This document shows positions 20,930 through 59,082 of a stretch of 64,000 bases of DNA, in pieces (the stretch's first letter is position 1; each line of letters opens with the position of its first letter). Where the stretch lies: the IMG/VR virus record IMGVR_UViG_2713896908_000007; one strand, written 5' to 3'. Position numbers and translations under genes: made by a program. This stretch comes from a virus (taxonomy: Duplodnaviria; Heunggongvirae; Uroviricota; Caudoviricetes). The notes below the pieces were generated by a model. The model made no database searches. It was given only the letters and a program-made list of their open reading frames with translations, and was not told the origin of the DNA.

Positions 20930-20989
20930 GCCAATATTCCGTAGAAGAGATGTTACTTCGCGAGCAGTATGACTCCATAGGTTTCTGAG

Positions 20990-21008
20990 ACGTTACTTTG
21001 CATATGAT
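20990..21008 (+). promoter_or_regulatory. candidate late promoter (ACGTTACTT-N4-TATGAT)
   Basis: 9-bp inverted-repeat motif plus -10-like hexamer about 135 nt upstream of the 562-aa ORF; a second weaker copy (ATGTTACTT) at 20950. Confidence 0.45.
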
Positions 21009-21142
21009 ATTGCTGAGGCAAATACATTCAATGCCGCATTTTTGTGAGATTTTAAGCCAATCTACATCACCATTAGGTAAGAGTATCTTTTTTTGGTGGT
21101 GATGGCGCAATGTATCAGTGGACAGCATAAGGTGTAACAGGG

Positions 21143-27734: not shown

Positions 27735-29009
27735 TATATTGCCCTCCAGCTACCTTACCTAATGTCTGTTGGTATATTGGCTTTGATAACATTTTCGTCC
27801 GTGTATTCATTTATATACTCATTAGTTTCAATGTATTATATAGAACATGAAGCGTGCCTATAAATATCGATTCTATCCAACTCCCGAACAAACCGAGCTA
27901 TTAGCCCGGACTTTTGGGTGTGTGCGTTTTGTCTATAACAGCCTCCTTCGCTGGCGTACCGATGCATACTACGCACGCCATGAGAGGGTCGGCTATGCAC
28001 AAGCCAGCGCCAAATTAACGGCACTGAAAAAAGAACCAGAATTCGCTTGGCTGAATGACGTTTCCTGCGTCCCCCTCCAGCAGTCTCTGCGCCACCAACA
28101 AACGGCTTTTGCTAACTTTTTCGCCGGGCGTGCTGCATACCCAGTTTTTAAGAGCAAGCGGCATAAACAGGCCGCAGAACTAACTGCCAGCGCATTTAAA
28201 TACCGTGACGGCAAGCTGTACATGGCAAAGAGCAAAGAGCCGTTAGATGTTCGCTGGAGCCGTCCGTTGCCGTCTGCTCCATCCACTGTCACTATCACCA
28301 GGGATGCTGCCGGACGATATTTTGTATCCTGTCTCTGCGAGTTTGAGCCTGTATCACTGCCGATCACCGTTTCCACGGTCGGCATTGATATTGGTTTAAA
28401 AGATTTGTTCGTCACCGATACCGGTTTCAAAACTGGCAATCCTCGACACAACGCTAAATACGCGAAGCGATTAGCAGTGTTACAGCGCAGATTGAGCAAG
28501 AAACAAAAAGGCTCAAAGAACCGCGCCAAAGCACGTTTAAAGGTTGCCCGCCTCCACGCGAGAATAGTCGATTGTCGGATGGATAACCTGCATAAGTTGT
28601 CCCGCAAACTGATTAACGAAAACCAAGTTGTTTGCGTCGAATCCCTTAAAGTGAAAAACATGATCCGTAACCCGAAGCTGTCTAAAGCAATAGCTGACGC
28701 AGGCTGGAGCGAACTTGTACGCCAACTCCAGTACAAAGGAGAATGGGGTGGACGTAGCATTGTCGCTATCGACCAGTATTTCCCTTCTTCCAAACGTTGC
28801 AGCAGTTGCGGCTTCACCATGCAAAAAATGCCTCTTAATATTCGTAAATGGCACTGCCCGGAATGTGGCGCAGAGCATGATCGTGATATTAACGCGGCCC
28901 GTAATATAAAAGCTGCCGGGCTGGCAGTGTTAGCCCTTGGAGAGTCTGTAATTCCTAAGCCGCTTCATGTGGTTTAGGTCGGACTCTGTGAATTGGGAAT
29001 GTTTGCCGT
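27735..29009 (+). mobile_element. IS200/IS605-family TnpB-only element (boundaries approximate)
   Basis: Single tnpB ORF in opposite orientation between two co-directional head genes; no tnpA; ends not resolved. Confidence 0.4.
27847..28977 (+). CDS. tnpB: TnpB (RuvC-like RNA-guided nuclease of IS200/IS605 family)
   Basis: 376 aa; OrfB N-terminus MKRAYKYRFYPTPEQ…; RuvC motifs GIDIGLKD, ESLKV, CPECGAEHDRDINAARNI with CxxC…CxxC zinc finger. Confidence 0.9.
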   Translation: MKRAYKYRFYPTPEQTELLARTFGCVRFVYNSLLRWRTDAYYARHERVGYAQASAKLTALKKEPEFAWLNDVSCVPLQQSLRHQQTAFANFFAGRAAYPVFKSKRHKQAAELTASAFKYRDGKLYMAKSKEPLDVRWSRPLPSAPSTVTITRDAAGRYFVSCLCEFEPVSLPITVSTVGIDIGLKDLFVTDTGFKTGNPRHNAKYAKRLAVLQRRLSKKQKGSKNRAKARLKVARLHARIVDCRMDNLHKLSRKLINENQVVCVESLKVKNMIRNPKLSKAIADAGWSELVRQLQYKGEWGGRSIVAIDQYFPSSKRCSSCGFTMQKMPLNIRKWHCPECGAEHDRDINAARNIKAAGLAVLALGESVIPKPLHVV

Positions 29010-30806: not shown

Positions 30807-33800
30807 ATGAACAAGCTATCTATGGGGGTGTTTCGCTGTTCAAGCGTCAGCGAAATATTGAAATATATTAGGGCAATAACATCTCACCGAGCGCCGATTA
30901 AATACGGCGTGGAAAAGGTGGAAGGCAAAAGCTATGACCGACTGCGCCGGGAGGCGAATCAGAAGGCGATAGATTTGCTTAATTCGCTGGTGGACGGCGC
31001 GACACTGACAGATGAACAGCGCCAGATCCTGGCTGGGTACACCGGTGAAGGCGGCATTGGCGGGTCCGTCTCCGAATATTACACACCAAAGCCGATCGCT
31101 GAAGGTGTCTGGGAGATCATGAAGCTCTACGGCGCGGACGTAGGTAACACTCTGGAACCATCGGCGGGAACCGGCGTTTTTAATGAGACAAAACCGGTTG
31201 GTACGGTGATGACCGCGACTGAGATCAGCAGTGTTTCCGGTCGTATAAACCAGTTGTTACACCCGGAAGACAGCGTACAGATTTCCCCGTTCGAACAGCT
31301 GGCTATAAGCACGCCTAACGATTCATTCGACCATGTTGTGGGTAACGTTCCGTTCGGCGGTCGTGATAACACACGCAACATCGATAAGCCTTACGCAGAA
31401 GAAACGGACATGGGTTCTTACTTCATGCTCCGCATGCTGGACAAGATAAAGCCAGGCGGATTCATGTGCGTGATTGTGCCGCCGTCCATTGTTTCAGGTT
31501 CAAACATGAAGCGGTTACGCCTGCGCCTATCACGGAAAGCTGAATTTCTTGGTGCCCACCGCTTGCCTACCGGTACTTTTGACGCAAACGGGACCAGTAC
31601 AGTCGTTGATGTGGTGCTGATGCGCAAACATCCGGCAGAGATGGCTGAGAAAATCCCCCAGGTGGATGAAAGCACTCTTGAATCGGCAAATGTGCTTTGG
31701 CCAACGTTTATTTCAGGCAAGTGGTTTGAAAAGGACGGACGCCGGTTTGTTCATGGTGCCCAGGAAAAGGGCTTCCAGGGGCGTATTGAGGTTCGTGCCG
31801 ACGGGCAGATTGATAACCAGGCTCTTAAAACGAAGCTGATTCATCGTTTCGAAAGTCGTATCGACTGGTCTTTGCTCGATATGGCTGAACCGTCACCGAC
31901 CGCAGATGTTGTTGATGAAGGGGAAATGCGCCTGATTAATGGCGTATGGCAAAAATATGCTGGTGGTCGCTGGATTGAAGCTGATGCTGGTAAGGAGCTT
32001 AAGATTGATGCTGCCAGTTATGGCGCGGATAGCTGGGAGGCTCTTCAGCGTAACCTGACTACAACAGAAGGCCGTCTCGGTATGACATTTACCCAGATGG
32101 CAAATGTCCGCGATAAGTACACCACATCAATCAGCGACGATATGGTGCAGCTGGTGGACTGGATTAACAGCCAGCCTGAAAAATACCGTGAACGCTTGTA
32201 TCGCGGGGCGATGATTGGCCGGATGTTAATTGAATATCAGGACATGAAGGCCGCCGGGCATAGTGCTGAACAAATCGAACAGCAGCGCCTTTCTCTGGTA
32301 TCCCGTTTGCAGGCAGAGATTGATCGCTTTGGTAATCCTGGTCGCGGTCCTATAGCGAAATTGTCGGGGAGCGGTGCGCGCGCCTGGTTTGCTTTCCGTG
32401 GTGCGATTAAGCTGGATGGCACTATTTCTGACGAGCTGACAGGAAAGCTGGTTACGCATGATTCCAGCGCCAGTTATGACTCCACCAGCTATCAGGACAC
32501 CCTGCGTTATCTCTATAGCGATCTTACCCGCGATCCAATCCAGCTCGATGATTTCCGCCTTGCGTTTACCGGCGAACTGCCAGCCAGTGATGAAGAGTTG
32601 CTTAATTTATTGGCCAGCACCCCTGGTATTGCGGTTTCACCGTATGGCGGGATTGTTCCGTTCGCCCGCGCCACCAGCGGCGACATTAACGAGATAGTGG
32701 CTCCAAAACAGGAATTTCTTGCCACACTCCCCGACGGTCCAGTAAAGAACAACGTCCTTAATCAGCTGGCAGCGATCGAAGAGAAGCGCATCAAGACGCC
32801 AGCAGAGAATATCCGGTTTAAGCTCAATAGCCGTTGGTTTGACCGTTCCGTCATTCTGGAATTTTTGCAGGAAAACGGCTATCCGGATCTGCGCTATGTG
32901 CAGTCAGTGCAGCTGGAAGGCGACGAAATGGTTTCTGACACCTATCACGGTGGTGATGGTCTGTTCGTCGGGCACCGATACGGTGTCGTCCAGCGCAAGG
33001 ATAAAGAAACAGGCGAGATCCGCTACGAGTGGGACCGTAAATCAGGTGAAAACGCGACCGGGTTCCCGGCACAGCTGGAAAAGTATCTCAATGGTGCGCG
33101 TATCGGTGGCAAAGATAGCGCGACGGCGAACGGCTACCGCGAGCAGATGGCACTGCTTGAGGACCAGTTCAATAAGTGGATCAAGACGCACGATCGCTAC
33201 GATGAACTGGTTGCCAAATACAACGATGTGTTCAATAGCAATATCCCGTATGAACACTCTGGCGATCCGCTTGGGTTGAAGGGATTAAGCGGTAAGCGCC
33301 AGCCATTTGATTACCAGAATAGCGAGGTGCGCCGACTGTCCGAAGATGGGCGCGGCATCTTGGGCTTCGGCACCGGGCTGGGTAAAACCACGACCGCGCT
33401 GGCGCTTGAGGCGTTCAACTATGAGAACGGTCGCTCCACCCGTACTGCTTATGTAGTGCCTAAATCAGTGCTGGAAAACTGGTATTACGAAGCAAAAGAG
33501 TTCCTGAGTGAAGAGGCATTCAGTAACTACCTGTTCGTTGGTCTTGATGTGCTGATGGATGGCGATCAGATTCGCCAGGTGCCGGTGCTCGACGAGAACG
33601 GTAAACCTGTCCTTGGCGCTGATGGCGCTCCCGTTATGCGCGATGCTCTTAAACTGGCAGATGAAGCCACTATCACAGCAAGGATGAACGCGATTCCGCA
33701 CTCAAATTACCGTGCAGTCGTGTTTACCAAAGAACAATACGCCCGCATTCCGCTACGTGATGACACCGTAGATGAGCATGCACAAGACATGCTTTATGAC

Positions 33801-36581
33801 TTCGTTGCTGCCGGACGTGTGGCCAGCGCAATGGATTCCGACTCCCACCGCAAAGAGGCGGCGCGTCGCCGGGTATTGTCGGAGTATTCAGATACCGGTA
33901 CCGAAAAAGCAGAGAAGTATCCGTACTTTGAGGATATGGGCTTCGACAGCGTGATTGCTGACGAAGGCCACAACTACCGCAATAGCTATAAAAATGGTCG
34001 CGAAGCGTCACAGCTGGCCTATCTGCCCACCAGCGCGGTGGCGCAATCGGCGCGAGATATGGCAATCAAAAACGCGTACCTGATGAAAAAGAATGGCGGG
34101 CGCGGGCCGGTTCTCCTGAGTGCAACGCCAGTCGTTAACACCCCGATCGATGCATACAACATGCTTTCTCATGTTCTGCCGAAGGAATACTGGCAGAAGA
34201 TGGGGATCTACGGTCCTGATGACTTCGTTAAATTCTTCGGCAAGACCAGGCTGGAAACGGTACAGAAAATCAGCGGTGAAGTTGAAGAAAAAATGGCGCT
34301 GGTGGGCTTTGAAAACCTTGATGCGCTGCGCGGCATATTCCATCGCTGGACAACGCTTAAAACAGCGGAAGACGTTAAGGATACCGTGGAGATCCCGGAG
34401 CTGGACGAGCACCAGCAGGATGCACCACTTACTGAAGAACAACTGGCGGCGTATGAAGAATTGCGTCAGCAGGCGGAAGCGGCGGCCAAAGCCAACAATG
34501 GCGTAACGACCTCGGTCAATGAAGACGGCGTGATTGAGCACGAGAAAGCCCGTCCGATCTTCTCAATAATCAGGGATATGGACCGCGTATGTACTGACAT
34601 GGACCTGTACTATCGCCGGATCACCTATCGTTTCCTGCCGGAGTACGCCGATGCGGTGCAGCAGCTGGCGGACAGTTTGCCTAAACAAGCCACCAGCGAA
34701 GACGACGACAGTGATGATTCAATCACGCAGCAATCGCAATACTCCCTGATAGATAAGGGCGAGTTTATTCAGTTGCAGGTTCCGGAAGCGTTCGAGCAGG
34801 AAGTGAATAAGCGCCTGGCCAGGTTTGGCATTGACGAACAGACCGTAACTCACCCCGTTACGCCCAAATACGCGAAGCTGATTGCCACGCTGAAGGAGTT
34901 TTTCCCGGAAGGTAAGCAAATCATCTTCACCGATGAAAAAACGCAGCACCAGAAGCTCAAGCGCATTATCTGCAATGCTCTTAACCTTGAACCTTCAAAG
35001 GTGGGGATACTGAATGCTCAGACGGTTGCCGAGGCAGGTAAAACCGGTAAGAAACTGAAAGCGGTTAAACCGCCGAAAGAGTTACCGGATGAACCAACAG
35101 ATGCACAGATAGCGAAATACAACGAGCAAATGGCTCTGTATGACGCCTATATCGCGCAGCAAAATGAAATGTCGCTGGGCGGGCTGGAAAAGATTGCTGC
35201 CGACTTCCAGGAGGGCCGGACTCCGATCATCATCTGCAACAAAAAGGCAGAGGTGGGTATCAACCTGCATCGAGGAACGACTGACATCCATCATCTGACG
35301 TTGCCATGGACACCAGCCAGTATCGCACAGCGTAACGGTCGCGGTGCCCGAGTTGGCTCCAACCGTGCAAGCGTTCGCGTTCACTACTACTGCGGCAAGG
35401 GTTCTTTCGATGAATACCGACTGAAGACGCTGAAGCGTAAAGCAGGCTGGATCTCCGATATCCTCCGTTCAGATAAGTCAGAAATGGAGAACGCCGACGC
35501 CAACGATATGATCGAAATGCAGATGTATACCGCTAAGGATGATGGCGAACGTCTGGCAATGATGCAGGTTCAAATGGATAAGGCGAAAGCCGCGCAACGC
35601 GCTCGCCAGAAAGAACAGGCTACTATCGACCTTCAGAACTACATCAAGGCGCAGCACGCAGCTGGTGAGGATGTGGAGGTGCTTACCGCTGAATTAGAGC
35701 GAAGCAAAGCGGAACTTGAAAAGACCACCGCCGACGTCGCCAAATTCAAACAGGCGGTAATGGCCAAAGCAGCTGATAACGCAGACTGGAAAGCCCGCTG
35801 GGGTAGCGTCCATCACACAGACCGTACGTTGTTAGCACAGTATCGCGCGTCGTTGAAAAGCGCCATTCAGCGCAAGGCTAATATCTCTCAAGCCATCTCC
35901 CGCTATGAGAAATTATTGAACCGTACTCAGAAGGCCGCGACGGATATCAAACGCCTGCGCCCGCTGGTGGAGGATGCAATAAATAAAGGCATTATGGATG
36001 TTGATCCTGACTTGGTTAACCATGCGAGTGAGTTCCTTGTTATCGGCGATCGCTCATGGCGTGTAGGCCAATACTACGATTGTGCCGGTGATATCGTTCG
36101 CATTAAGTCGCTGGACTTCGACAGCCAGCGCGCAGACGTGGAGATTATCTTTACCTTCAAAGGTACCAAATCGGGTAACTGGGATGTGAAGACGCTGGAT
36201 AAACAGGTTGATGTAACTCCCGATGAAGATGCTGTTATGCAGAAAATCAGTGGTGGCGTCTCCATCGCCGGGATTAACGACATCATTTCCTGTGACGATT
36301 TCTACCGTTTCCAGCAGCGCGGCATGATCAAAATCACTGACTCATACGGCGTTCAGACTACAGAGTCAGGCTATAGCATTGATTTTGTTGGTACCTATAC
36401 GGACCCACTGAAGCATGCGGTTTACCCGGATCGCCGTGACGGCGCGCTGAAGTCGTCAATTGCAAAATGGGTGCTTGGTATGATGTCGGAAGGGAATAAC
36501 CGCCAGATCCGTTCGGCAGAAACATTCCTGGTTGAACTGTTTGGCTCCAATTATGGCGATGGGAGATACGCTATCCCCTGA
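30807..36581 (+). CDS. darB: antirestriction methyltransferase-helicase (P1 DarB-like)
   Basis: 1924-aa ORF; N6-adenine methyltransferase motifs (EPSAGTGVF, GNVPFGG); SF2 helicase motifs (GTGLGKTT, VIADEGH, QRNGRGAR). Confidence 0.85.
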   Translation: MNKLSMGVFRCSSVSEILKYIRAITSHRAPIKYGVEKVEGKSYDRLRREANQKAIDLLNSLVDGATLTDEQRQILAGYTGEGGIGGSVSEYYTPKPIAEGVWEIMKLYGADVGNTLEPSAGTGVFNETKPVGTVMTATEISSVSGRINQLLHPEDSVQISPFEQLAISTPNDSFDHVVGNVPFGGRDNTRNIDKPYAEETDMGSYFMLRMLDKIKPGGFMCVIVPPSIVSGSNMKRLRLRLSRKAEFLGAHRLPTGTFDANGTSTVVDVVLMRKHPAEMAEKIPQVDESTLESANVLWPTFISGKWFEKDGRRFVHGAQEKGFQGRIEVRADGQIDNQALKTKLIHRFESRIDWSLLDMAEPSPTADVVDEGEMRLINGVWQKYAGGRWIEADAGKELKIDAASYGADSWEALQRNLTTTEGRLGMTFTQMANVRDKYTTSISDDMVQLVDWINSQPEKYRERLYRGAMIGRMLIEYQDMKAAGHSAEQIEQQRLSLVSRLQAEIDRFGNPGRGPIAKLSGSGARAWFAFRGAIKLDGTISDELTGKLVTHDSSASYDSTSYQDTLRYLYSDLTRDPIQLDDFRLAFTGELPASDEELLNLLASTPGIAVSPYGGIVPFARATSGDINEIVAPKQEFLATLPDGPVKNNVLNQLAAIEEKRIKTPAENIRFKLNSRWFDRSVILEFLQENGYPDLRYVQSVQLEGDEMVSDTYHGGDGLFVGHRYGVVQRKDKETGEIRYEWDRKSGENATGFPAQLEKYLNGARIGGKDSATANGYREQMALLEDQFNKWIKTHDRYDELVAKYNDVFNSNIPYEHSGDPLGLKGLSGKRQPFDYQNSEVRRLSEDGRGILGFGTGLGKTTTALALEAFNYENGRSTRTAYVVPKSVLENWYYEAKEFLSEEAFSNYLFVGLDVLMDGDQIRQVPVLDENGKPVLGADGAPVMRDALKLADEATITARMNAIPHSNYRAVVFTKEQYARIPLRDDTVDEHAQDMLYDFVAAGRVASAMDSDSHRKEAARRRVLSEYSDTGTEKAEKYPYFEDMGFDSVIADEGHNYRNSYKNGREASQLAYLPTSAVAQSARDMAIKNAYLMKKNGGRGPVLLSATPVVNTPIDAYNMLSHVLPKEYWQKMGIYGPDDFVKFFGKTRLETVQKISGEVEEKMALVGFENLDALRGIFHRWTTLKTAEDVKDTVEIPELDEHQQDAPLTEEQLAAYEELRQQAEAAAKANNGVTTSVNEDGVIEHEKARPIFSIIRDMDRVCTDMDLYYRRITYRFLPEYADAVQQLADSLPKQATSEDDDSDDSITQQSQYSLIDKGEFIQLQVPEAFEQEVNKRLARFGIDEQTVTHPVTPKYAKLIATLKEFFPEGKQIIFTDEKTQHQKLKRIICNALNLEPSKVGILNAQTVAEAGKTGKKLKAVKPPKELPDEPTDAQIAKYNEQMALYDAYIAQQNEMSLGGLEKIAADFQEGRTPIIICNKKAEVGINLHRGTTDIHHLTLPWTPASIAQRNGRGARVGSNRASVRVHYYCGKGSFDEYRLKTLKRKAGWISDILRSDKSEMENADANDMIEMQMYTAKDDGERLAMMQVQMDKAKAAQRARQKEQATIDLQNYIKAQHAAGEDVEVLTAELERSKAELEKTTADVAKFKQAVMAKAADNADWKARWGSVHHTDRTLLAQYRASLKSAIQRKANISQAISRYEKLLNRTQKAATDIKRLRPLVEDAINKGIMDVDPDLVNHASEFLVIGDRSWRVGQYYDCAGDIVRIKSLDFDSQRADVEIIFTFKGTKSGNWDVKTLDKQVDVTPDEDAVMQKISGGVSIAGINDIISCDDFYRFQQRGMIKITDSYGVQTTESGYSIDFVGTYTDPLKHAVYPDRRDGALKSSIAKWVLGMMSEGNNRQIRSAETFLVELFGSNYGDGRYAIP

Positions 36582-37560
36582 AGCAATTCAGGAGAAAATA
36601 GCGGATGCGATCGCCAGAATGCCGGAAAAAACAAACCAGGGGGCTACTCGTAACGGGGATTCTGAACTTGAAGTCACCAATGCCATTTTCGGTACCAATG
36701 AGTTCCGGGCGTCAGATTATGAGATCACCACAGCACAGTTTGGCACCATTGGCATTTACAGCAATAAAGACGAGATCAAGCAGGCAATGGACGCAGCAAG
36801 TGCGCGCATTGCAGCAGAACGGAAAGCCAATCTGAATCATGCAGTCGCCGCGCTGACTCAATCGTGGGTAACAGCAATCAGGGAGGCCGCCACCACAGGA
36901 AAAATCACACCGGCAATTGCGGATGTCGTAAACGACGGCTCTAAATTTATGGATGCCTATCAAATGGATGCGGTGCAGTTGCCATCAGCCTATGGCCAAC
37001 TCAGCTATCGCATGACCTACAACCTGGTATCAATGTTTTCCGACCTTGCCATCCTTGGGCTGGTGGACCTTAACGAGGTTACGCCGGAATTGCTCAGCAT
37101 GCGCAAGAACCATGTGGAGATATTGCACAGAATTAACACGGTACTTTCCGGGCGCACCGATGAAGAGAAACAGGCAGACGCTGATCGGATAAACCTAGCC
37201 CTTGGCAACATCACGGAGGAAGAAATTGCCGCCAGAAACGAGAAACAAGAAGAGTTATCATCAATACAGGGTGATGCCACCAGCATAGCTCAGTCTCTTG
37301 GTCTGAATTATCGCGTATCCACCGCCGACCTGAAGATGATGTACGCACCAAAATTCGCCGCTGGCGAGGTATTTGGGCTTCAGGAAGCCTCAGGCATGAA
37401 AGGCGTTCTTTTCCGTGCGAAAGACGCAATCAAGGCGAAATTCGGCGCTCGCTGGCTGCCAGCGAAGGCGAAGAACAGCGATTTCCCGGGTAACTGGTGG
37501 ATTATCGAGACAAAACACAACGTGGCGGACGTTCTGGCCGTCATCCAACAATACGCATAA
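36553..37560 (+). CDS. downstream ORF overlapping DarB-like 3-prime end (separate gene or frameshifted DarB C-terminal segment)
   Basis: Track ORF 36532..37560 (342 aa, TTG); first ATG at 36553; +1 frame relative to DarB-like ORF with 29-50 nt overlap. Confidence 0.45.
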   Translation: MAMGDTLSPEAIQEKIADAIARMPEKTNQGATRNGDSELEVTNAIFGTNEFRASDYEITTAQFGTIGIYSNKDEIKQAMDAASARIAAERKANLNHAVAALTQSWVTAIREAATTGKITPAIADVVNDGSKFMDAYQMDAVQLPSAYGQLSYRMTYNLVSMFSDLAILGLVDLNEVTPELLSMRKNHVEILHRINTVLSGRTDEEKQADADRINLALGNITEEEIAARNEKQEELSSIQGDATSIAQSLGLNYRVSTADLKMMYAPKFAAGEVFGLQEASGMKGVLFRAKDAIKAKFGARWLPAKAKNSDFPGNWWIIETKHNVADVLAVIQQYA

Positions 37561-37581: not shown

Positions 37582-38034
37582 GTGTCGCATAATATGGCCA
37601 CACTATCTGATACAATAAAACCGAATAAAACATATCTTGAGGCGGTACTCCGTACAGCGTTGTTAGGAAAGACAGAAGACGAATACGTTGATTTCTTCCT
37701 GTCAGGGCTACGCGGGCGATTACTGAAAAATCCCCGCCTGTACCGCAGCTATGGTCCATACTGGCCGGAAATTAAAAAATTATTACTGGAGCGCGGTTAT
37801 GGTAATTTCGGTCGTCTCGTTGACCGTGACGTTCGCAAAATTTACCGTTATGACCGCCCGGCGCTAACACTCATAGCCGCGACGCTCTACAGCCAGGAGC
37901 GTTTTGATAATGGTCAGATATACTCAGCCTGGCATTTACTGCCAGTGCCTGAAGAAGTTGACGACCAGGACTATGAGTTTGAGTCTTACGATTTGGAAGT
38001 TGAAGCCTTGGCACAGGCTGGAGAGAAAACTTGA
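37582..38034 (+). CDS. hypothetical protein
   Basis: 150-aa ORF, co-directional, 21 nt after previous stop. Confidence 0.5.
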   Translation: MSHNMATLSDTIKPNKTYLEAVLRTALLGKTEDEYVDFFLSGLRGRLLKNPRLYRSYGPYWPEIKKLLLERGYGNFGRLVDRDVRKIYRYDRPALTLIAATLYSQERFDNGQIYSAWHLLPVPEEVDDQDYEFESYDLEVEALAQAGEKT

Positions 38035-38279
38035 AAAAGCGATACTACACAGTAAAGCATGGGACGCTACGAGCATTACAAGAGTTTGCTGACAAGCATA
38101 ACGTTGAGGTGCGCAGGGAAGGGGGAAGTAAAGCTCTGCGCATGTACCGTCCTGACGGAAAATGGCGGACGGTCGTCGATTTCAAAACTAACAGCGTTCC
38201 CCAGGGCGTCCGCGACCGGGCATTCGAAGAATGGGAGCAGATCATCATAGATAATGCATTGCTTCTGAATGCTGATTAA
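38031..38279 (+). CDS. lxc: small regulatory protein (P1 Lxc/Bof-like by size and position)
   Basis: 82-aa ORF, ATGA-coupled; P1 Lxc is remembered as 82 aa at this position. Confidence 0.5.
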   Translation: MKKRYYTVKHGTLRALQEFADKHNVEVRREGGSKALRMYRPDGKWRTVVDFKTNSVPQGVRDRAFEEWEQIIIDNALLLNAD

Positions 38280-38290
38280 TGGTTTTGTTT

Positions 38291-38325
38291 CCCGGTATCG
38301 TATTATACCGGGAAATATCTTTTTA
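38291..38325 (+). terminator. stem-loop, possible terminator
   Basis: cccggtat/ataccggg stem; T-run begins 7 nt after the stem. Confidence 0.4.
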
Positions 38326-38327
38326 TA

Positions 38328-38735
38328 TTAACCCGCGGCTGCAATTAGTGCTGACCCAACCGCCAGTGTGGTGACAAGGCCTATAATGACCACTGTCGCT
38401 GTTACCCCTCCTGCAACAGCAGCTCCAGTCTTTGTTTTGGATAACTCTTTCTTTTCTAGAGAAATGATTTCACCCATAGGAATAGACTGGTTGTTAATAC
38501 CATTGATATATTGTGGGGTAACTTTCGATACTGTCATTTCACCTTCGCTACCTGATTTTAACTTGTATTTAATTAGGTCACCAGCATATATCGGCGGCTC
38601 CGTTAAATAATAGGTACTTCTTTCAAGATTTTTCTGCTGTATGTTAACTCCCTGATAAGACTGACATCCACATAACACAAGCGATAAAATTAGCGTTGTC
38701 AGTAATTTTCTTTTGTTTTTTATCATTGCCAGCAC
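38328..38735 (-). CDS. AT-rich lipoprotein with C-terminal Gly/Ala-rich membrane segment
   Basis: 135-aa ORF; signal peptide with lipobox-like LVLCGC; C-terminal AVAGGVTATVVIIGLVTTLAVGSALIAAAG; AT-rich with AT-rich upstream region. Confidence 0.6.
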   Translation of the reverse strand: MLAMIKNKRKLLTTLILSLVLCGCQSYQGVNIQQKNLERSTYYLTEPPIYAGDLIKYKLKSGSEGEMTVSKVTPQYINGINNQSIPMGEIISLEKKELSKTKTGAAVAGGVTATVVIIGLVTTLAVGSALIAAAG

Positions 38736-38860
38736 TCCTTCTCCTTTTCTTTGTATAGCTAAAACACATTATTTATTCTTGTCAAATAGTTTTGAGTTTG
38801 AGAGTGAGGTTTGCGTGACGACGCTCTAAAAGTTGCAGATAGCGGTAAAGATAATTTTAT

Positions 38861-39502
38861 TTACAATATGTTACCTTTTCCGGTAAGTATGCCTTGCGGT
38901 ACTTTACTTTCCCCCATTAGTTGAGTGGCATGAATGATATTAATAAATGACATTAGTTGTGATGAACTCTTATTAACATTTATCTCTCCTGCCATTGCCC
39001 TAATGTAGTCGGCGCTTGCAACGTTGTTATATTCCGTTGCGAAGCAGCATAACAACGTCAGAACGTGCTCTGTCGTTATTTCGCTCCAGTTGATGTTGAA
39101 AAATTCATCGCCTTTTTTGTCATGTTCGGAATCGAAGATGCTTTGGTGGAGGATGTATTTGCCGGATTCCTTGCGCGGTAACTTGATCGCTTTCTGGCGT
39201 TCCAATTCCTTGTAAATCTGCATTGCTTCAATCAGTACCGGCCTGCCGTTCATGAAGGGATCGCGCAACCTTACACGCTGGCCAACTCGACCAGTAATAA
39301 AGCTGTTTTCCTCTTCCACCAGCACGATAAAACCCTTTTCCTCTTTTTCTCGCAATTCGCGCAGCAGCTGGAGTTCCATATCGCGGCGGCGTTCAGGGTA
39401 GCTGGTCCGCTCAGCCATTATCAGCTCGTTATTGATCCATGCAGCAGTCATTGACGCCGGTTTGCCGACGTTCATCGAAACAACGCATATTTTCTTATCC
39501 AT
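38861..39502 (-). CDS. mat: particle maturation protein (P1 Mat-like by synteny)
   Basis: Track ORF extends to 39649 but a late-promoter motif lies at 39633-39651; ATG at 39502 (MDKKIC…) with GGGGG RBS preferred. Confidence 0.5.
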   Translation of the reverse strand: MDKKICVVSMNVGKPASMTAAWINNELIMAERTSYPERRRDMELQLLRELREKEEKGFIVLVEEENSFITGRVGQRVRLRDPFMNGRPVLIEAMQIYKELERQKAIKLPRKESGKYILHQSIFDSEHDKKGDEFFNINWSEITTEHVLTLLCCFATEYNNVASADYIRAMAGEINVNKSSSQLMSFINIIHATQLMGESKVPQGILTGKGNIL

Positions 39503-39632
39503 AGCGCCCCCTACAAAAAAGAAAAGCCACCAGCGGCGGCTTAGCAATACAACTGAAGGTAGCGCCCGGTACTCAGACTGTGCCGTCCATGGAATATTTG
39601 AAAAGGGATCCATCCGTACCGGGCGTGTGATG

Positions 39633-51332: not shown

Positions 51333-51533
51333 TTATCTGCTGCCCGGCATTTTCTGTTTAAGCACAACCATTTCCTGACGGCATAACACAGCAATAGCGG
51401 TCCTGGCACCAATTTGCTTACCAACCAGGTATTGCTTTACCTTGCGGCGACTCACGCCATCAAGAAGCATCTTTAACGCTTCACGGGACAATTTGTTGTA
51501 TTTGCGTGCCATTAATCTACTCCGCAGAACCAT
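51333..51533 (-). CDS. small basic protein downstream of doc
   Basis: 66-aa ORF overlapping the doc 3-prime end. Confidence 0.35.
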
Positions 51534-51897
51534 ACAATCTACGTAACGTGTCGGCGACAGAAGATACAGATATCTCGCCAGTCGCAGCGCCTACAGTAAG
51601 GTCTGCCAGTTCAGGTGAATCAAATACCTGCACCCCGTTACGGCGTAGAAATAGCAGCGCACTGTTTAGCGCGGTACGCTTATTGGCATCATTGAATATA
51701 TGCCCTCTCGCTGTAGCCACCAGGTAGGTGGCGGAGACTTCGAAAAGGTCGGTGATCTCTTCGTAGGCAACTCTGGCCTGAACTCTCCCGATAATGGCCT
51801 CTGCCCTACCCGGATCTGACATTCCCGGCAGGCCGCCGTAGCGGCTTATATTCGCATCATGAAGCGCAATAAGTTCTTCCGGTGATATATGCCTCAT
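51517..51897 (-). CDS. doc: Doc toxin (Fic-domain kinase) of phd-doc addiction module
   Basis: 126-aa ORF matching P1 Doc from memory ([26 protein letters not shown]…); overlaps phd stop. Confidence 0.93.
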
Positions 51898-52118
51898 TAT
51901 CGGTTAACCAGTTCCTTGTTGGTGGAGTCCAGGGTGTCAAACAGGGATGCAAATTCAGCATCCAGCGCCGCTTTTTTGTAGGCTTCGAAAGTGGCCTTGC
52001 TGACAATTACGGCTGATTCACGGCCTCTGCGGATGATTTCAACCTCTTCCCCTGCTTCAACATTATTGAGCACTTCGCTAAGGTTGCCGCGTGCGGTACG
52101 GAAGTTAATGGATTGCAT
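51897..52118 (-). CDS. phd: Phd antitoxin
   Basis: 73-aa [31 protein letters not shown]… (track start 52124 is an upstream GTG). Confidence 0.93.
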
Positions 52119-52124
52119 AAACAC

Positions 52125-52150
52125 CTCGTGTACTCGTTATGTGTACACAA
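52125..52150. promoter_or_regulatory. phd-doc promoter/operator region with GTGTAC(AC) palindromes
   Basis: cgtGTGTACtcgttatGTGTACACaa directly upstream of phd; Phd/Doc autoregulation at palindromic operators is established for P1. Confidence 0.5.
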
Positions 52151-52294
52151 TTATAAACTTCACAAGCATAAAGCACCAGCACTTTGCAGCTTAACAAAAC
52201 TCTAGGCAGGTCATTCGTTGCCTAATATCCGAACTACTAAAGCATCAGAGTTGCTGTAGAATCACCGCCAATTACATAAGCCTGAAATAAGTGG

Positions 52295-53857
52295 ATGAAA
52301 ATGACAAGTATTCAACAACGTGCAGAGCTTCATCGTCAAATCTGGCAAATTGCTAACGATGTCAGGGGTTCGGTCGATGGATGGGATTTTAAGCAATACG
52401 TTCTGGGCGCACTTTTCTACCGTTTTATCAGCGAAAATTTTTCCAGTTATATGGAAAATGGTGATGACAGCATCTGTTATGCGGCACTTGATGACGGCAT
52501 TATTACTGATGACATTAAAGACGATGCCATCAGAACCAAAGGCTACTTCATCTACCCCAGTCAGCTTTTCTGCAACGTAGCGGCGAAAGCAAATACCAAT
52601 GACAGACTGAATGCAGATTTAAATAGTATCTTCGTTGCTATCGAAAGCTCTGCTTACGGTTACCCTTCAGAAGCTGACATCAAAGGTTTGTTTGCTGATT
52701 TTGATACAACCAGTAACCGCCTGGGTAACACCGTTAAGGATAAAAATGCCCGCCTGGCTGCGGTTCTGAAAGGGGTCGAAGGGTTAAACCTTGGTGACTT
52801 CAATGAACATCAGATTGACCTGTTCGGTGATGCCTATGAGTTCCTGATTTCTAACTATGCGGCAAATGCCGGTAAGTCAGGCGGTGAGTTCTTTACACCG
52901 CAGCACGTCTCCAAGCTGATTGCACAACTGGCTATGCACGGGCAGACCCACGTTAACAAAATCTACGACCCGGCCGCGGGTTCCGGTTCGCTGTTGTTGC
53001 AGGCTAAAAAGCAGTTTGATAACCATATCATTGAAGAAGGCTTTTTCGGACAGGAAATCAACCATACGACCTATAACCTGGCACGTATGAACATGTTTTT
53101 GCACAACATCAACTACGACAAGTTTGATATCAAGCTGGGCAATACGCTGACTGAACCGCACTTCAGAGATGAAAAACCGTTTGATGCCATCGTCTCTAAC
53201 CCGCCGTATTCGGTGAAATGGATTGGCAGCGATGACCCGACGCTGATTAACGATGAACGTTTTGCCCCGGCTGGCGTTCTGGCCCCCAAATCCAAAGCTG
53301 ACTTTGCGTTTGTACTACATGCGCTGAACTATCTTTCGGCCAAAGGTCGCGCCGCGATTGTCTGCTTCCCGGGTATTTTTTACCGTGGCGGCGCGGAGCA
53401 GAAAATCCGTCAGTATCTGGTTGACAATAACTATGTCGAAACCGTGATTTCACTGGCACCGAACCTGTTCTTTGGCACCACCATTGCCGTAAATATTCTG
53501 GTGCTGTCTAAACATAAAACGGATACCAAAGTTCAGTTTATTGACGCCAGCGAACTGTTCAAAAAAGAGACTAACAACAACATCCTGACCGATGCCCATA
53601 TCGAAAAAATTATGCAGGTATTTTCCAGCAAGGAAGATGTTGCTCATCTGGCGAAATCTGTCACGTTTGAGACCGTTGTCGCGAATGACTATAACCTGTC
53701 GGTAAGCAGCTATGTGGAAGCGAAAGATAACCGCGAAATTATCGATATCGGTGAGCTGAATGCTGAGCTGAAAACCACGGTCAGCAAAATCGACCAGTTG
53801 CGCAAAGATATTGATGCGATTGTGGCTGAAATTGAAGGCTGCGAGGTGCAGAAATGA
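52295..53857 (+). CDS. hsdM: type I restriction-modification methyltransferase subunit HsdM
   Basis: 520 aa; SAM motif [11 protein letters not shown] and catalytic NPPY (SNPPYSVKW). Confidence 0.95.
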
Positions 53858-55074
53858 GCGAGATGAGTTATCTGGAAAAATTGCTGGATGGGGTTGAGGT
53901 TGAGTGGTTGCCATTGGGGGAAGTCTCAGCCTTAAGAAGAGGCAGAGTTATGTCAAAGGGATATTTAACTGAAAATTTTGGCCCATATCCTGTCTATAGC
54001 TCTCAAACTGCAAATAATGGGAAAATAGGTTCTATCAATACCTTCGATTTTGATGGCGAATATATAAGCTGGACAACAGATGGCGCAAATGCAGGCACTG
54101 TGTTCTATCGAACAGGTAAATTTTCAATAACTAATGTTTGCGGCCTGATTACATTAAAAAGTAAATACCCATTAATCTACAAATTTCTGTTTTACTGGCT
54201 AACAATAGAAGCCAAAAAACATGTTTACTCAGGAATGGGAAACCCCAAGTTAATGAGTCATCAGGTTGAAAATATACCTGTACCAATCCCCTGCCCGGAT
54301 AATCCGGAAAAATCCCTTGCCATCCAGTCTGAAATCGTTCGGATTCTGGATAAATTTACTGAGCTTACAGCTGAGCTTACAGCTGAGCTTACAGCTGAGC
54401 TTACCATGCGTAAAAAACAGTACAACTACTATCTTGACCAGTCGCTAAGTTTTAAAGAGGGTGAGGTCGAGTTGAAAACGTTGGGAGAGATGGGGACACT
54501 TATAAGAGGCAAACGCTTTGTGAAATCCGACATAATTCCCAAGGGAGTACCGTGTATTCACTACGGTGAAATGTATACCCATTACCGCATCTGGGCGGAT
54601 AAAGCAAAATCGTATATCTCTGTTGAATTAGCGTCCAAGTTAAGAAAAGCCTCATGCGGAGATGTTGTTTTTGTCTCTGCGGGTGAAACAATTGCAGATA
54701 TTGGTCGTGGAACAGCCTGGTTAGGCGATGAAGATGTTGTTATTCATGACGCATGTTTTTTCTATAAAAGTTCATTGAACCCCAAGTATGTGGCCTACTT
54801 CTCAAGAACAAATTTCTTCCACGATCAGATTAAAAAATCGATCTCTTCGGGGAAAATTTCTGCCATCAATGCCAAAGGCTTTGAAAAAGTGATTATTCCA
54901 GTTCCTTCACCAGAAGAACAAGCACGCATCGTTGCTTTCTTGGACAAATTCGACACATTGACAAGCTCCATCACCGAAGGCTTACCCCGTGAAATAGAAC
55001 TACGCCAGAAGCAGTACGAGTACTATCGTGATTTACTGTTCAGTTTCCCAAAACCTGAAGCTGTCAGTAATTAA
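53854..55074 (+). CDS. hsdS: type I restriction-modification specificity subunit HsdS (type IC-like with TAEL repeats)
   Basis: 406 aa; two target-recognition halves separated by a central region with three TAEL repeats; ATGA-coupled to hsdM. Confidence 0.92.
54361..54405 (+). repeat. 12-bp tandem repeat (gagcttacagct x3 plus partial) encoding TAEL repeats in hsdS
   Basis: Direct reading; repeat number of this element sets target spacer length in EcoR124-type type IC systems. Confidence 0.85.
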
Positions 55075-55195
55075 TTGACCATTGCTACCGACCGGGCCAC
55101 CTTAACACCCGGTCAGTATATAGACTATTTTTTACACGCTGGAAGTCACCATTAACGCCCTTCCGGCCCTTGCCAGACGGCACAAAGGATACGCT

Positions 55196-58100
55196 ATGAC
55201 TCATCAAACACACACCATTGCTGAATCCAATAACTTTATCGTTCTTGATAAATACATCAAAGCTGAGCAAACAGGCGACAGCTATCAGAGCGAATCGGAC
55301 CTGGAACGTGAACTGATTCAGGACCTGCAAAATCAGGGCTATGAATTTATATCCGTAAAATCACAGTCAGCGATGCTGGCCAACGTTCGGGAACAGCTTC
55401 AGAGCCTCAATGGTGTGATGTTTAATGACAGAGAGTGGCGGCGTTTCACGGAGCAGTATCTGGACAACCCGAGCGATGGCATTCTGGATAAGACCCGTAA
55501 AATCCATATCGACTATATTTGCGACTTTATTTTTGATGACGAGCGACTTGAGAACATCTATTTGATAGATAAAAAGAATCTCATGCGCAATAAGGTGCAG
55601 ATTATCCAGCAGTTTGAACAGACGGGTTCTCATGCTAACCGTTATGACGTCACGATCCTGGTTAATGGTTTACCGCTGGTGCAAATCGAACTAAAAAAAC
55701 GCGGGGTGGCGATTCGTGAGGCTTTCAACCAGATACATCGTTACAGTAAAGAGAGTTTTAACAGCGAAAATTCCCTGTTTAAGTATCTGCAACTGTTTGT
55801 CATTTCTAACGGCACCGATACCCGTTACTTTGCCAACACCACAAAGCGCGATAAAAACAGTTTTGACTTCACAATGAACTGGGCGAAATCAGACAACACG
55901 CTGATTAAAGACCTCAAAGACTTTACCGCTACCTTTTTCCAGAAACATACTCTGCTGAATGTTCTGGTGAACTACAGCGTTTTTGACAGTAGTCAGACGC
56001 TACTGGTGATGCGACCGTACCAGATTGCAGCTACCGAACGAATTTTATGGAAAATCAACAGTTCCTATAAAGCGAAAAACTGGTCCACTCCCGAAAGTGG
56101 TGGCTTTATCTGGCACACCACCGGTTCCGGTAAAACACTGACCAGCTTTAAAGCCGCGCGTCTGGCAACAGAACTGGACTTTATTGATAAAGTCTTCTTC
56201 GTGGTCGACAGAAAAGACCTCGATTACCAGACGATGAAGGAATATCAGCGTTTTTCGCCAGACAGCGTCAACGGCTCGGAAAATACCGCAGGACTTAAAC
56301 GAAATCTGGATAAGGACGATAACAAAATTATCGTCACCACTATTCAGAAACTCAATAACCTGATGAAAGCAGAAAGCGACCTGCCTGTATACAATCAGCA
56401 AGTGGTGTTTATATTTGATGAATGTCACCGCAGCCAGTTTGGAGAAGCACAGAAAAACCTGAAGAAGAAATTCAAACGCTATTATCAGTTTGGTTTTACC
56501 GGCACACCTATTTTCCCGGAAAACGCCTTAGGCTCAGAAACAACCGCCAGCGTATTTGGCCGTGAATTGCATTCATATGTTATTACCGATGCGATTCGTG
56601 ACGAAAAAGTGCTCAAATTCAAGGTGGACTACAACGATGTGCGGCCACAGTTTAAGTCTTTAGAGACAGAAACTGACGAGAAAAAACTGAGTGCGGCTGA
56701 AAATCAGCAGGCGTTTCTTCATCCCATGCGTATTCAGGAAATCACGCAATATATCCTGAACAACTTCCGCCAGAAAACCCACCGTACTTTCCCTGGTTCC
56801 AAAGGTTTTAATGCCATGCTGGCAGTAAGCAGCGTGGATGCTGCAAAAGCCTATTATGCGACGTTTAAACGGTTACAAGAGGAAGCCGCTAATAAATCTG
56901 CAACTTATAAACCGCTGCGTGTTGCGACAATCTTCTCCTTTGCCGCTAATGAAGAACAAAATGCCATTGGTGAAATTTCCGATGAAACTTTTGATACCAG
57001 CGCAATGGACAGCAGTGCTAAAGAGTTTCTTGACGCTGCAATTCGTGAGTATAACAGCTATTTTAAAACTAACTTCAGCACCGACGGTAACGGTTTTCAG
57101 AACTACTATCGTGATTTAGCCCAACGGGTTAAAAATCAGGATATCGATCTGTTAATTGTCGTTGGGATGTTTTTAACCGGCTTCGACGCTCCAACATTGA
57201 ACACGCTATTCGTCGATAAAAACTTGCGTTTTCACGGCCTGATGCAGGCATTTTCCCGCACCAACCGTATTTATGATGCAACTAAAACCTTCGGTAATAT
57301 CGTCACTTTCCGCGATCTGGAACGCTCAACCATCGATGCCATAACGCTGTTTGGTGACAAAAACACCAAAAATGTAGTGTTAGAAAAGAGTTATGCAGAG
57401 TATATGGAAGGCTTTACTGATGCTGCTACTGGTGAAGCTAAGCGCGGCTTTATGGCAGTAGTTGCAGAACTGGAACAACGGTTCCCTGACCCTGCCAGTA
57501 TTGAAAGTGAAAAAGAGAAGAAAGACTTCGTTAAACTGTTTGGTGAATACCTGCGTACCGAGAACATCCTGCAAAACTATGATGAATTTGCCACGCTGAA
57601 AGCCCTGCAACAAATCGATCTTAGCGATCCTGTTGCAGTAGAAAAATTCAAAGCAGAACATTATGTGGATGATGAAAAGCTCGCTGAATTGCAAACAATT
57701 CGTCTCCCTGCTGATCGCAAGATTCAGGATTATCGTTCTGCCTATAACGATATTCGCGACTGGCAGCGCCGTGAGAAAGAAGCTGAGAAAAAAGAGAAAT
57801 CAACCATTGACTGGGATGACGTAGTTTTTGAGGTCGATTTGCTGAAGTCTCAGGAAATAAACCTGGATTATATCCTTGGACTGATTTTCGAACACAACAG
57901 ACAAAATAAAGGCAAGGGCGAAATGATCGAAGAGGTCAAACGCTTAATTCGTTCAAGCCTAGGGAACCGTGCTAAAGAGGGCTTGGTGGTCGATTTTATT
58001 CAGCAAACGAACCTGGATGATTTACCAGATAAAGCCAGTATCATTGAGGCATTCTTTACGTTTGCTCAACGCGAACAGCAACGTGAAGCAGAAGCATTGA

Positions 58101-58312
58101 TAAAAGAAGAAAATCTCAATGAAGAAGCAGCAAAACGCTATATTCGCACGTCTTTAAAACGCGAATACGCCACCGAAAATGGCACAGAATTAAACGAAAC
58201 ATTACCAAAACTTAGTCCGTTGAATCCGCAATATAAAACGAAAAAACAGGCAGTTTTCCAGAAAATCGTCTCGTTTATTGAGAAGTTTAAAGGCGTAGGC
58301 GGAAAAATATAG
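55196..58312 (+). CDS. hsdR: type I restriction endonuclease subunit HsdR
   Basis: 1038 aa; Walker [17 protein letters not shown]-like FDECHRSQ, C-terminal helicase motifs. Confidence 0.95.
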
Positions 58313-58328
58313 CCCAATTCGTGTTTTT

Positions 58329-58356
58329 CTTGCGGGTTCTTAATTAAACCCGCAAG
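58329..58356. other. perfect 10-bp stem-loop after hsdR
   Basis: cttgcgggtt-cttaatta-aacccgcaag; no U-tract. Confidence 0.5.
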
Positions 58357-58391
58357 AGCTCGTGGGGTTCCAAATGGCTAATATACTCCCA

Positions 58392-58478
58392 TTACCCATG
58401 CGCGACGATGCCGCCAAAAGTGATAGAGAACAGCCAGAAATAGATCGCGGCCATAATGATTTTGAATGCCGTGTTCAT
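58392..58478 (-). CDS. candidate 28-aa hydrophobic peptide (MNTAFKIIMAAIYFWLFSITFGGIVAHG)
   Basis: ATG preceded by AGGAG; antisense between hsdR and the following terminator; below the ORF-track size cut-off. Confidence 0.3.
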   Translation of the reverse strand: MNTAFKIIMAAIYFWLFSITFGGIVAHG

Positions 58479-58506
58479 ATCCTCAGCTCCTGTGATTGAT
58501 TGGATA

Positions 58507-58537
58507 CATGCCGCGCCTTGCGGCATGTTTTTATTTT
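58507..58537 (+). terminator. rho-independent terminator downstream of the hsd operon
   Basis: catgccgc-gcctt-gcggcatg followed by tttttatttt. Confidence 0.6.
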
Positions 58538-58559
58538 CACCATCTCTGTTTAAAAATCA

Positions 58560-58576
58560 AGTTTTATTAGAGCAAT
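58560..58576 (-). promoter_or_regulatory. C1 operator (agTTTTATTAGAGCAAT)
   Basis: 15/17 to consensus; overlaps the stop of the adjacent phosphatase-like gene and faces the hsd insertion. Confidence 0.5.
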
Positions 58577-59082
58577 TATTGTTGATAAAGAAGCGCATTT
58601 TCATACTCCCTGACCATTAACGTAAGTACGCCGTGACTCCTGAAAACACGCGCCACTTCAATCTTATCTTCCAGCGCGAACGCAATTTTACTTAGACCAA
58701 TTTTCTTCAGGAGATCAATCTTTGCTGGACCGTCATTTCTGTCATCGGTGGCAGGACGCATAGATAGCAAAGGCTCAGCCCCGTTTGTTACGTGCTTCCG
58801 CAGCCAGGCTCGTGTTTTATCCCTTGCGATCTCACAGCGCCCGGTTACAAACCAGACCGTGTAAACGTTAAATAACTGGCGCACCATATCAATAACTGGA
58901 GTTATGGGAGTATCGGTGTCACAGGCGAGATTAAACTCGTTCCAGTCCTTTGTTAATGCACCTTTACCTGGTGGCGGAAGCAAATGCAGTCTGTCTTCAG
59001 TTGCCTCTGATATTGTTCCATCAATATCAACTATGACGATATACGGACGTTCATGGTGTGCGTGTTGGTTGAAAATACTCAA
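58576..59082 (-). CDS. HAD-superfamily phosphatase-like protein
   Basis: 168-aa ORF; HAD motif I IVIVDIDGT. Confidence 0.55.
   Translation of the reverse strand: MSIFNQHAHHERPYIVIVDIDGTISEATEDRLHLLPPPGKGALTKDWNEFNLACDTDTPITPVIDMVRQLFNVYTVWFVTGRCEIARDKTRAWLRKHVTNGAEPLLSMRPATDDRNDGPAKIDLLKKIGLSKIAFALEDKIEVARVFRSHGVLTLMVREYENALLYQQ

Follow-up and report, generated by a model that had tools for sequence, protein, structure and literature searches.

Does the operon beside phd-doc in this viral genome encode a complete type I restriction-modification system, how does it come to stand there, and is it paired with the antirestriction genes of the same element? The window (the whole 64-kb stretch of DNA analysed) belongs to a P1-like phage-plasmid (Punavirus), most likely of an Escherichia albertii lineage. 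Of 45 kb, 67-74% aligns to phage P1 (NC_005856) at 96-97.5% identity, P1 proteins are recovered from the window by tblastn, and the backbone is syntenic with P1 through structural, lysis, immunity and maintenance genes, with C1 operators among them. Phd-doc, pap, Op88, the C1 operator set and the Dar genes are all shared with P1. The hsd genes very probably make up a complete, intact restriction-modification gene set of the EcoR124 family (type IC), from which we infer its activity and biological role. Features are collected in Table 1.

Table 1. Features of the hsd locus and of related P1-like loci in the window
Feature	Position	Strand	Description and evidence
darB homologue	30807-37557		frame broken
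lxc	38031-38276
mat	38870-39613
doc	51517-51897	-	toxin, 126 aa; 100% identical to P1 Doc (tblastn)
phd	51897-52118	-	antitoxin, 73 aa from ATG at 52118; 97% identical to P1 Phd
Left breakpoint	52194/52195		P1 homology stops at humD stop codon, P1 ~87969-87970; blastn of window against P1, alignment
Type IC hsd cassette	52195-58387	+	~6.2 kb; blastn and alignments against P1
hsdM	52295-53857	+	m6A methyltransferase subunit, 520 aa; match to EcoR124II HsdM
hsdS	53854-55074	+	specificity subunit, 406 aa; constant regions match EcoR124 HsdS
TRD1	53923-54273	+	HsdS residues 24-140
TAEL-encoding 12-bp tandem repeat	54359-54404	+	central conserved region of hsdS; TRF
TRD2	54493-54927	+	HsdS residues 214-358
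Candidate separate hsdR promoter	55102-55131	+	TTAACA-18-TATTTT; consensus scan only, 9/12 matches
hsdR	55196-58312	+	translocase-nuclease subunit, 1038 aa; match to EcoR124I HsdR
Right breakpoint	58387/58388		P1 homology restarts at P1 84482, 6 bp upstream of would-be pmgT ATG
Small ORF	58392-58478	-	28 aa, MNTAFKIIMAAIYFWLFSITFGGIVAHG; AGGAG ribosome-binding site
Intrinsic-terminator-like hairpin, strong	58506-58538	+	10-bp stem with 6 GC pairs, then TTTTTATTTT
C1 operator	58560-58576	-	ATTGCTCTAATAAAACT; 2 mismatches to consensus; homologue of P1 Op88/OpmgT
pap	58576-59082	-	3'-phosphatase homologue; 96% identical to P1 Pap; first conserved P1 gene rightward

The hsd genes and their products

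The three plus-strand reading frames have the subunit sizes originally read for them and run without internal stops. The hsdS start overlaps the hsdM stop (ATGA) and a 121-bp gap separates hsdS from hsdR, which is the type IC layout of an hsdM-hsdS unit, a gap and hsdR, with a promoter that is predicted. The assignment to EcoR124-type type IC systems holds on comparison with EcoR124I and EcoR124II (PDB 2w00, 7bst), in which gene order, the lengths of HsdM and HsdR, the HsdS constant regions and the 12-bp TAEL repeat are as here. HsdM matches EcoR124II HsdM (7bst_D) end to end (1145 bits, 12 mismatches counted), as HsdR does EcoR124I HsdR (2w00_A, 2259 bits); both are ~97-98% identical to these chains over full length, a likeness that serves as proxy for the subunit-exchange definition of type IC. 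HsdM of EcoKI (type IA) matches far more weakly, at 66 bits. Curated cutoffs are exceeded for both TIGR00497 (647 bits on HsdM, cutoff 243) and TIGR00348; PADLOC matches are type I MTase, Specificity and REase; and among Pfam domains EcoR124_C is found in HsdR and Methylase_S twice in HsdS.

Disruption of the HsdR catalytic motifs, named in the original prediction as what would speak against it, was looked for, and all motifs are intact. HsdR keeps the PD-(D/E)xK nuclease residues D151, E165 and K167, the QxxxY motif as QIHRY at 179-183 (Q179 and Y183 are HsdR motif residues; PMC2475608), and the SF2 motor motifs GSGKT at 310-314 and DECH at 408-411. HsdM has the SAM-binding motif DPAAGSG at 225-231 and NPPY at 302-305. 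The candidate site between hsdS and hsdR may be hsdR's own promoter, by analogy with the two-promoter organisation of EcoR124. For hsdM, no site in 52195-52294 passed the consensus scan; ~90 bp upstream of the gene are conserved in alignments of cassettes with different flanks, as expected of a functional promoter region.

In HsdS, N-terminal, central and C-terminal constant regions agree in alignment with EcoR124 HsdS (7bst_A), and the two variable recognition domains (TRD1 and TRD2), which lie on either side of the central TAEL repeats, both differ. The three repeats noticed earlier form a perfect array by TRF (period 12, 3.8 copies, 100% matches) and by translation, giving three exact TAEL units, (TAEL)3, the number found in EcoR124II; that copy number determines spacer length, as had been supposed, is documented (PMC3874165). 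Both TRDs are unrelated to those of EcoR124I/II for GAA and RTCG, so specificity differs from that of EcoR124I/II. Each TRD was compared alone with all PDB chains (E<=1) and gave only chance matches among solved structures, and therefore no half-site is transferable to this HsdS. Many E. coli HsdS alleles with other TRD2s share this TRD1 at 98% identity or more, and its sequence is found in the TRD2 position too; for TRD2, identity is 97-100% to the corresponding domain of alleles whose TRD1 differs. The whole protein is identical to RefSeq WP_148880112.1 at 405/406 positions, with A403 here against T. A literature search found no usable E. albertii methylome.

Reasoning from the family, hsdM and hsdS would be translationally coupled and their products would form an M2S methyltransferase for a bipartite target that is specified by both recognition domains of HsdS, with half-sites held by the (TAEL)3 coiled-coil spacer one bp further apart than by a (TAEL)2 allele. 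HsdR, made from its own promoter, would join to give R2M2S, an ATP-driven DNA translocase that would cleave DNA lacking the modification at a distance from the target. Within a lysogen, unmodified phages and plasmids coming in should be restricted, and the DNA of host and element marked.

The slot between phd-doc and Op88

The cassette sits where P1 has a 3.5-kb segment (P1 84483-87969) containing pmgT, pmgU, pmgV, upfM/N/O, hot, lxr and humD. The comparison with P1 upstream of phd, suggested with the original prediction, places the break in homology at the humD stop codon. According to the P1 record, homology with the upstream flank of EcoDXXI reaches its limit at this left coordinate, and homology with the downstream flanks of EcoDXXI and R124/3 at the right one; relative to P1, the breakpoints of the EcoDXXI and R124/3 loci are identical to those here (phd-doc to P1 87969; Op88-proximal from P1 84482). 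Loci of this kind, with hsd flanked by P1 DNA, were described by Tyndall et al. (1997, Mol Microbiol 23:729), and the present one has their phd-doc upstream, Op88 region downstream and fixed breakpoints. In EcoDXXI and R124/3 the P1 homology ends after a few hundred bp, whereas here it extends into a whole P1-like genome; the replicon of EcoR124 is the conjugative plasmid R124, and here it is a P1-like phage-plasmid.

On the left, the distance of ~175 bp given for the start of the hsd operon from phd-doc is 176 bp when taken between the phd and hsdM ATGs, and the -10/-35 of P1 Pphd map by homology to ~52150-52178. On the right, a C1 operator does lie near the hsdR 3' end where it had been placed. 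It overlaps predicted pmgT promoters; Op88 controls pmgT in P1. The window holds 12 C1-operator-like sites where chance would give 0.26. The sole ORF remaining downstream of the Op88 promoter is the 28-aa ORF, nearly invariant in an alignment of P1 and three hsd-bearing plasmids; NZ_CP043218 lists a 44-aa hypothetical protein for it, and the P1 record leaves it without annotation. The strong hairpin between this ORF and the operator is conserved in P1 and, with its T run on the plus strand, may mark where the hsdR transcript ends. Another hairpin, at 58327-58360, was rejected as a terminator, having no downstream T run on either strand. Between the Op88 promoter and hsdR no recognisable terminator was found. 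That the promoter fires antisense into the hsdR 3' end on prophage induction we hold to be very improbable; if it did, the switch from lysogeny to lysis would bring restriction down with it, which would protect progeny DNA that replicates fast and is under-methylated.

P1 carries its own restriction-modification genes elsewhere, the EcoP1I type III res-mod pair between mat and lxc. These had been reported absent from the present element, correctly so at the P1 locus. P1 Res has no tblastn match in the 64-kb window, to which the res-mod and gene searches apply (the element has ~35 kb more outside), and P1 res-mod DNA gives by blastn just one 34-bp match there, adjoining lxc. As the gap between lxc and mat is ~590 bp and Res is without a match, the P1 res-mod slot is empty.

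Dar genes and alternative readings

The element had also been read as holding both a type I weapon and a type I shield, that is, with type I restriction and DarB-type antirestriction deliberately combined and functionally linked. It does encode a darB homologue, and hdf, darA, ddrA and ulx are full length. Dar shields P1 DNA from several type I systems, according to two reports (PMC12707154; PMC12810830). In a survey, all P1/D6-group phage-plasmid sequences examined had the Dar genes, save ddrB in most D6, and many of the P1-like ones had defence systems. Against such a pairing, the set of Hdf, DarA, DdrA, DdrB, DarB and Ulx is incomplete here: a 14-bp deletion in darB, within 36540-36580, throws the reading out of frame beyond residue 1918 of 2255, and DdrB, an aid to the loading of DarB into the capsid, retains only residues 448-995, a gldA-bearing insert having replaced the 447 N-terminal ones, with the gldA/ddrB junction within 19580-21200. 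The darB frameshift is no common allele, since the 30-mer across the deletion junction has 0 matches in IMG/VR (5 for the intact version) and 615/615 PLSDB darB matches carry the extra 14 bp; it is either a lesion confined to this element or an error in the assembly. The Dar targets documented in the literature consulted, PMC12810830 included, are EcoB/EcoK (type IA) and EcoA/StySA, EcoA being type IB, and no type IC data were found there. Dar acts solely in cis, on packaged DNA (PMC12707154), and so neither conflicts with nor complements a resident restriction-modification system. P1 itself pairs Dar with type III restriction-modification, which makes co-carriage the norm and not a special design. 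The linked weapon and shield we regard as very unlikely, and partial loss of the DarB branch speaks against seeing design in the joint presence of hsd and dar.

Damage to darB and ddrB, together with the lack of a consensus hit upstream of hsdM in the scan, could be taken to mean that hsd is itself decaying cargo, silenced, or active as a methyltransferase only. Such a restriction-deficient state is most unlikely given the three full-length ORFs, the intact catalytic motifs, the closeness to the characterised EcoR124I/II, the upstream region conserved across flanking contexts and an identical HsdR protein on five E. albertii contigs. How the complete gene set that we favour reached the slot is a more evenly weighed matter. 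The cassette may have taken the place of the P1 pmgT-pmgU-pmgV-upfM/N/O-hot-lxr-humD block, with breakpoints as in EcoDXXI and R124/3. The proposal that it replaced C1-controlled genes is right in that it occupies the place of C1-controlled P1 genes. Alternatively, hsd was ancestral in the slot and the P1 block came later, or alternative cargos recombine at fixed flanks. The slot is indeed a recognised variable region (region 8 of P1-like plasmids; PMC9603915), its configurations coexist (hsd alone, humD-hot next to hsdM, the full P1 block), and in alignments the right breakpoint and the left cassette end are constant across contexts. Op88 and its predicted promoters, however, would have only the 28-aa ORF to transcribe before reading into hsdR in antisense, and therefore look like what is left of an operon that formerly included pmgT; the GC content of the cassette (0.40-0.47) is also slightly lower than that of its flanks. 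Neither point is decisive, and we judge the reverse or exchange history somewhat unlikely. In P1, pmgT, pmgU and pmgV are dispensable (PMC9024508).

Related loci and distribution

The same locus architecture, TRD pair and (TAEL)3 are found in E. albertii pEA16-1_1 (NZ_CP117651.1) and E. coli pET6.1-IncY (NZ_CP043218.1), the former 100% identical over both junction probes and the gldA/ddrB region. Both differ from the present element in having T at HsdS residue 403 and in being without the darB 14-bp deletion. A 402-aa HsdS allele (P0001, carried for example by GCA_020417445.1) with TRD1 and TRD2 100% identical to those here has one TAEL unit fewer, (TAEL)2, and occurs in the same context (pacB-...-doc-phd / hsdMSR / pap) in P1-like contigs; the example of EcoR124I and EcoR124II suggests that its half-sites would be the same, with a spacer one bp shorter. 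A single TRD pair that occurs at this P1-like locus with either two or three TAEL units makes a natural counterpart of the spacer switch between EcoR124I and EcoR124II.

Among PLSDB plasmids, 483 carry at least 80% of 51400-58700; the phd/hsdM junction occurs in 709 plasmids and the hsdR/Op88 junction in 258. The arrangement is already known, an ordinary type I set in a known variable slot shared by hundreds of plasmids; given the work of Tyndall et al. with the P1 GenBank annotation, the published slot, the PLSDB plasmids and the RefSeq HsdS, it is not novel. The locus accordingly has little weight as a discovery and is a clean example of an established pattern, in which P1-like phage-plasmids house the enterobacterial hsd genes of the EcoR124 family in an exchangeable slot, probably also the source from which these genes spread. 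In many conjugative plasmids the right flank is only ~84 bp long.

The hsd operon and its family

The original prediction of hsdM, hsdS and hsdR is confirmed: three uninterrupted ORFs of the predicted subunit sizes were found (table below). The hsdM stop and hsdS start codons overlap as ATGA, and a 121-bp gap containing a promoter-like site (55102-55131) separates hsdS from hsdR. Identification as an EcoR124-type (type IC) system is likewise supported, by matches to PDB chains and by Pfam, NCBIfam and PADLOC. HsdR matched EcoR124I HsdR (2w00_A) over residues 1-1038 with 2259 bits. HsdM matched the EcoR124II M protein (7bst_D) over residues 1-520 with 1145 bits and 12 substitutions (~97.7% identity), whereas EcoKI (type IA) HsdM scored just 66 bits. 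The NCBIfam models TIGR00497 and TIGR00348 both score far over cutoff. No catalytic motif of HsdR, whose disruption would have counted against the prediction, is disrupted: the nuclease residues (D151, E165, K167), the QxxxY motif (Q179, Y183; PMC2475608) and the motor motifs (GSGKT, DECH) are all present, as are DPAAGSG and NPPY in HsdM.

HsdS aligns with the EcoR124 S subunit (7bst_A) over its full length, but the two are identical only in the constant regions (N-terminal, central and C-terminal); both target-recognition domains (TRDs) differ from those of EcoR124.

Coordinates of features in the window
Feature	Position	Strand	Description
gldA	19736-20839	-	glycerol-dehydrogenase gene, host-type, in ~1.6-kb insert
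ddrB remnant	21143-22831	+	P1 residues 448-995 alone retained
darB	30807-37557	+	homologue of P1 darB, frame broken
doc	51520-51897	-	100% identical to P1 protein
phd	51900-52118	-	97% identical to P1 protein
hsdM	52295-53857	+	uninterrupted ORF, 520 aa
hsdS	53854-55074	+	uninterrupted ORF, 406 aa
TAEL element	54359-54404	+ (in hsdS)	perfect 12-bp array, three TAEL units
hsdR	55196-58312	+	uninterrupted ORF, 1038 aa
Small ORF	58392-58478	-	28 aa, hydrophobic, MNTAFKIIMAAIYFWLFSITFGGIVAHG, AGGAG ribosome-binding site
Hairpin	58506-58538	+	strong, intrinsic-terminator-like
C1 operator	58560-58576	-	homologue of P1 Op88/OpmgT

HsdS alleles

Counting the 12-bp array gave the three TAEL repeats originally predicted. 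In the EcoR124 enzymes the number of units sets the spacer, two producing N6 in EcoR124I and three producing N7 in EcoR124II; EcoDXXI and EcoPrrI also have three (Loenen et al. review, PMC3874165; table in PMC12707154). The exact 406-aa HsdS is absent from a collection of 15 billion proteins. WP_148880112.1, encoded on Escherichia coli pET6.1-IncY and E. albertii pEA16-1_1, shares both TRDs and the count of three TAEL units, and is set apart by a single substitution (A403T). Another allele, P0001, has both TRDs 100% identical to those of the window but two TAEL units, and so provides a natural EcoR124I/II-like pair for this specificity; its context is also that of the window (pacB-pacA-lpa-pdcB-pdcA-doc-phd, then hsdMSR, then pap).

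Neither TRD is like any solved S subunit. In the 120 nearest cluster representatives, both TRD1 and TRD2 are repeatedly combined with different partners (41 apiece at ≥90% identity), and TRD1 is found at the second position in some alleles. Such shuffling of domains is ordinary among type I S subunits. The P1-like plasmid NZ_CP062902.1 encodes a 413-aa HsdS whose second (C-terminal) TRD is TRD1 of the window, which shows that TRDs swap positions.

Probable replacement of P1 genes

Large parts of the window align to P1 at 96-97.5% identity; the P1 proteins Cre, Ref, Mat, Lxc, Ulx, Hdf, DarA, DdrA and Pap were recovered, and 12 C1-operator-like sites were counted where chance predicts 0.26. The window is a P1-like phage-plasmid. 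The start codons of phd and hsdM lie 176 bp apart, close to the predicted spacing. P1 homology ends at 52194 (P1 87970, the humD stop codon) and restarts at 58388 (P1 84482, 6 bp ahead of the pmgT start). Between these points P1 carries pmgT, pmgU, pmgV, upfM/N/O, hot, lxr and humD (3.5 kb), none of which occurs in the 64-kb window. The homologue of Op88, which in P1 overlaps predicted pmgT promoters, is present. These breakpoints and the retained operator support the proposal that the hsd module replaced C1-controlled genes. P1 single-gene knockouts of pmgT, pmgU and pmgV had no plaquing defect (PMC9024508). The P1-type type III res-mod is missing, as predicted, the slot between lxc and mat being empty. 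The lxc-mat spacing is ~590 bp (38277-38869), where P1 has the 6-kb res-mod plus IS5.

The arrangement was already known, since the P1 GenBank record marks the same breakpoints: P1 87969-88647 is annotated as 98% identical to DNA upstream of the EcoDXXI hsd locus, and 84263-84482 and 84399-84482 as 96-98% identical to DNA downstream of EcoDXXI and R124/3 hsdR, so that the limits of P1 homology at those loci are exactly the window's. In PLSDB, 483 plasmids contain at least 80% of 51400-58700, and the phd/hsdM and hsdR/Op88 junctions are intact in 709 and 258 plasmids, respectively. The arrangement also recurs in two phages on deposit, vB_EcoM-673R5 and phi456. Some variants keep humD and hot beside hsdM, and the left end of the cassette (~90 bp upstream of hsdM) does not differ between contexts with and without them. 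In NZ_CP062902.1 (2292-9422) humD and hot lie between phd and hsdM, which shows mosaicism of the slot. Because the arrangement of the hsd system is already known and its genes nearly match plasmid genes annotated in RefSeq, its interest and discovery value are low.

Just past the C1-controlled Op88 promoter, the 28-aa ORF is the sole ORF left. Its sequence is almost unchanged among P1, whose record does not annotate it, and hsd-bearing plasmids, and ~84 bp of it make up the P1-derived stub that is annotated after hsdR in R124/3. The minus strand has no terminator-like site from this ORF to the hsdR 3′ end, so we speculate that induction could give antisense transcription into hsdR. The hsdR transcript could stop at the plus-strand hairpin. 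The cassette's right end also has, 15 bp past the hsdR stop codon, a perfect 10-bp inverted repeat (CTTGCGGGTT...AACCCGCAAG, 58327-58360) with no T run downstream on either strand.

Dar genes

The original prediction paired a type I weapon with a Dar shield. This functional pairing is not supported: darB is frameshifted, ddrB has lost its N-terminal half, and co-carriage of Dar and R-M is general. Compared with P1, darB has a 14-bp deletion near 36561 (36540-36581) that puts it out of frame beyond residue 1918 of 2255 and splits it into ORFs of 1924 and 342 aa. The deletion is shared by none of 615 P1-like plasmids in PLSDB, and its junction 30-mer has no match in IMG/VR, against five for the intact sequence; it is therefore either an assembly error or a pseudogenising lesion private to this element. 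DarB inhibits EcoK/EcoB, and DdrB helps DarB incorporation (PMC9024508); the DarB branch of this element is probably defective. Protection against EcoA and StySA comes from DarA and Hdf (PMC12810830), and we found no type IC data among published Dar targets. Co-carriage is the rule, as P1 itself carries Dar along with an R-M system, and in a recent survey all P1/D6-group phage-plasmid sequences had the Dar genes, except that most D6 ones lacked ddrB, and many of the P1-like ones had defence systems.

The gldA insert (19580-21185) stands where the ddrB 5′ half was (P1 residues 1-447), a metabolic gene sitting inside an antirestriction gene. PLSDB has 16 plasmids with this arrangement; the 10 among the matches listed are all E. 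albertii P1-like plasmids, pEA16-1_1 being 100% identical, and the window therefore probably comes from that lineage. Elsewhere, between the cre-side region and the portal gene, where P1 has no counterpart, a TnpB-like ORF of 376 aa (27847-28977, plus strand) has IS605 OrfB and Cas12f1-like TNB domains.
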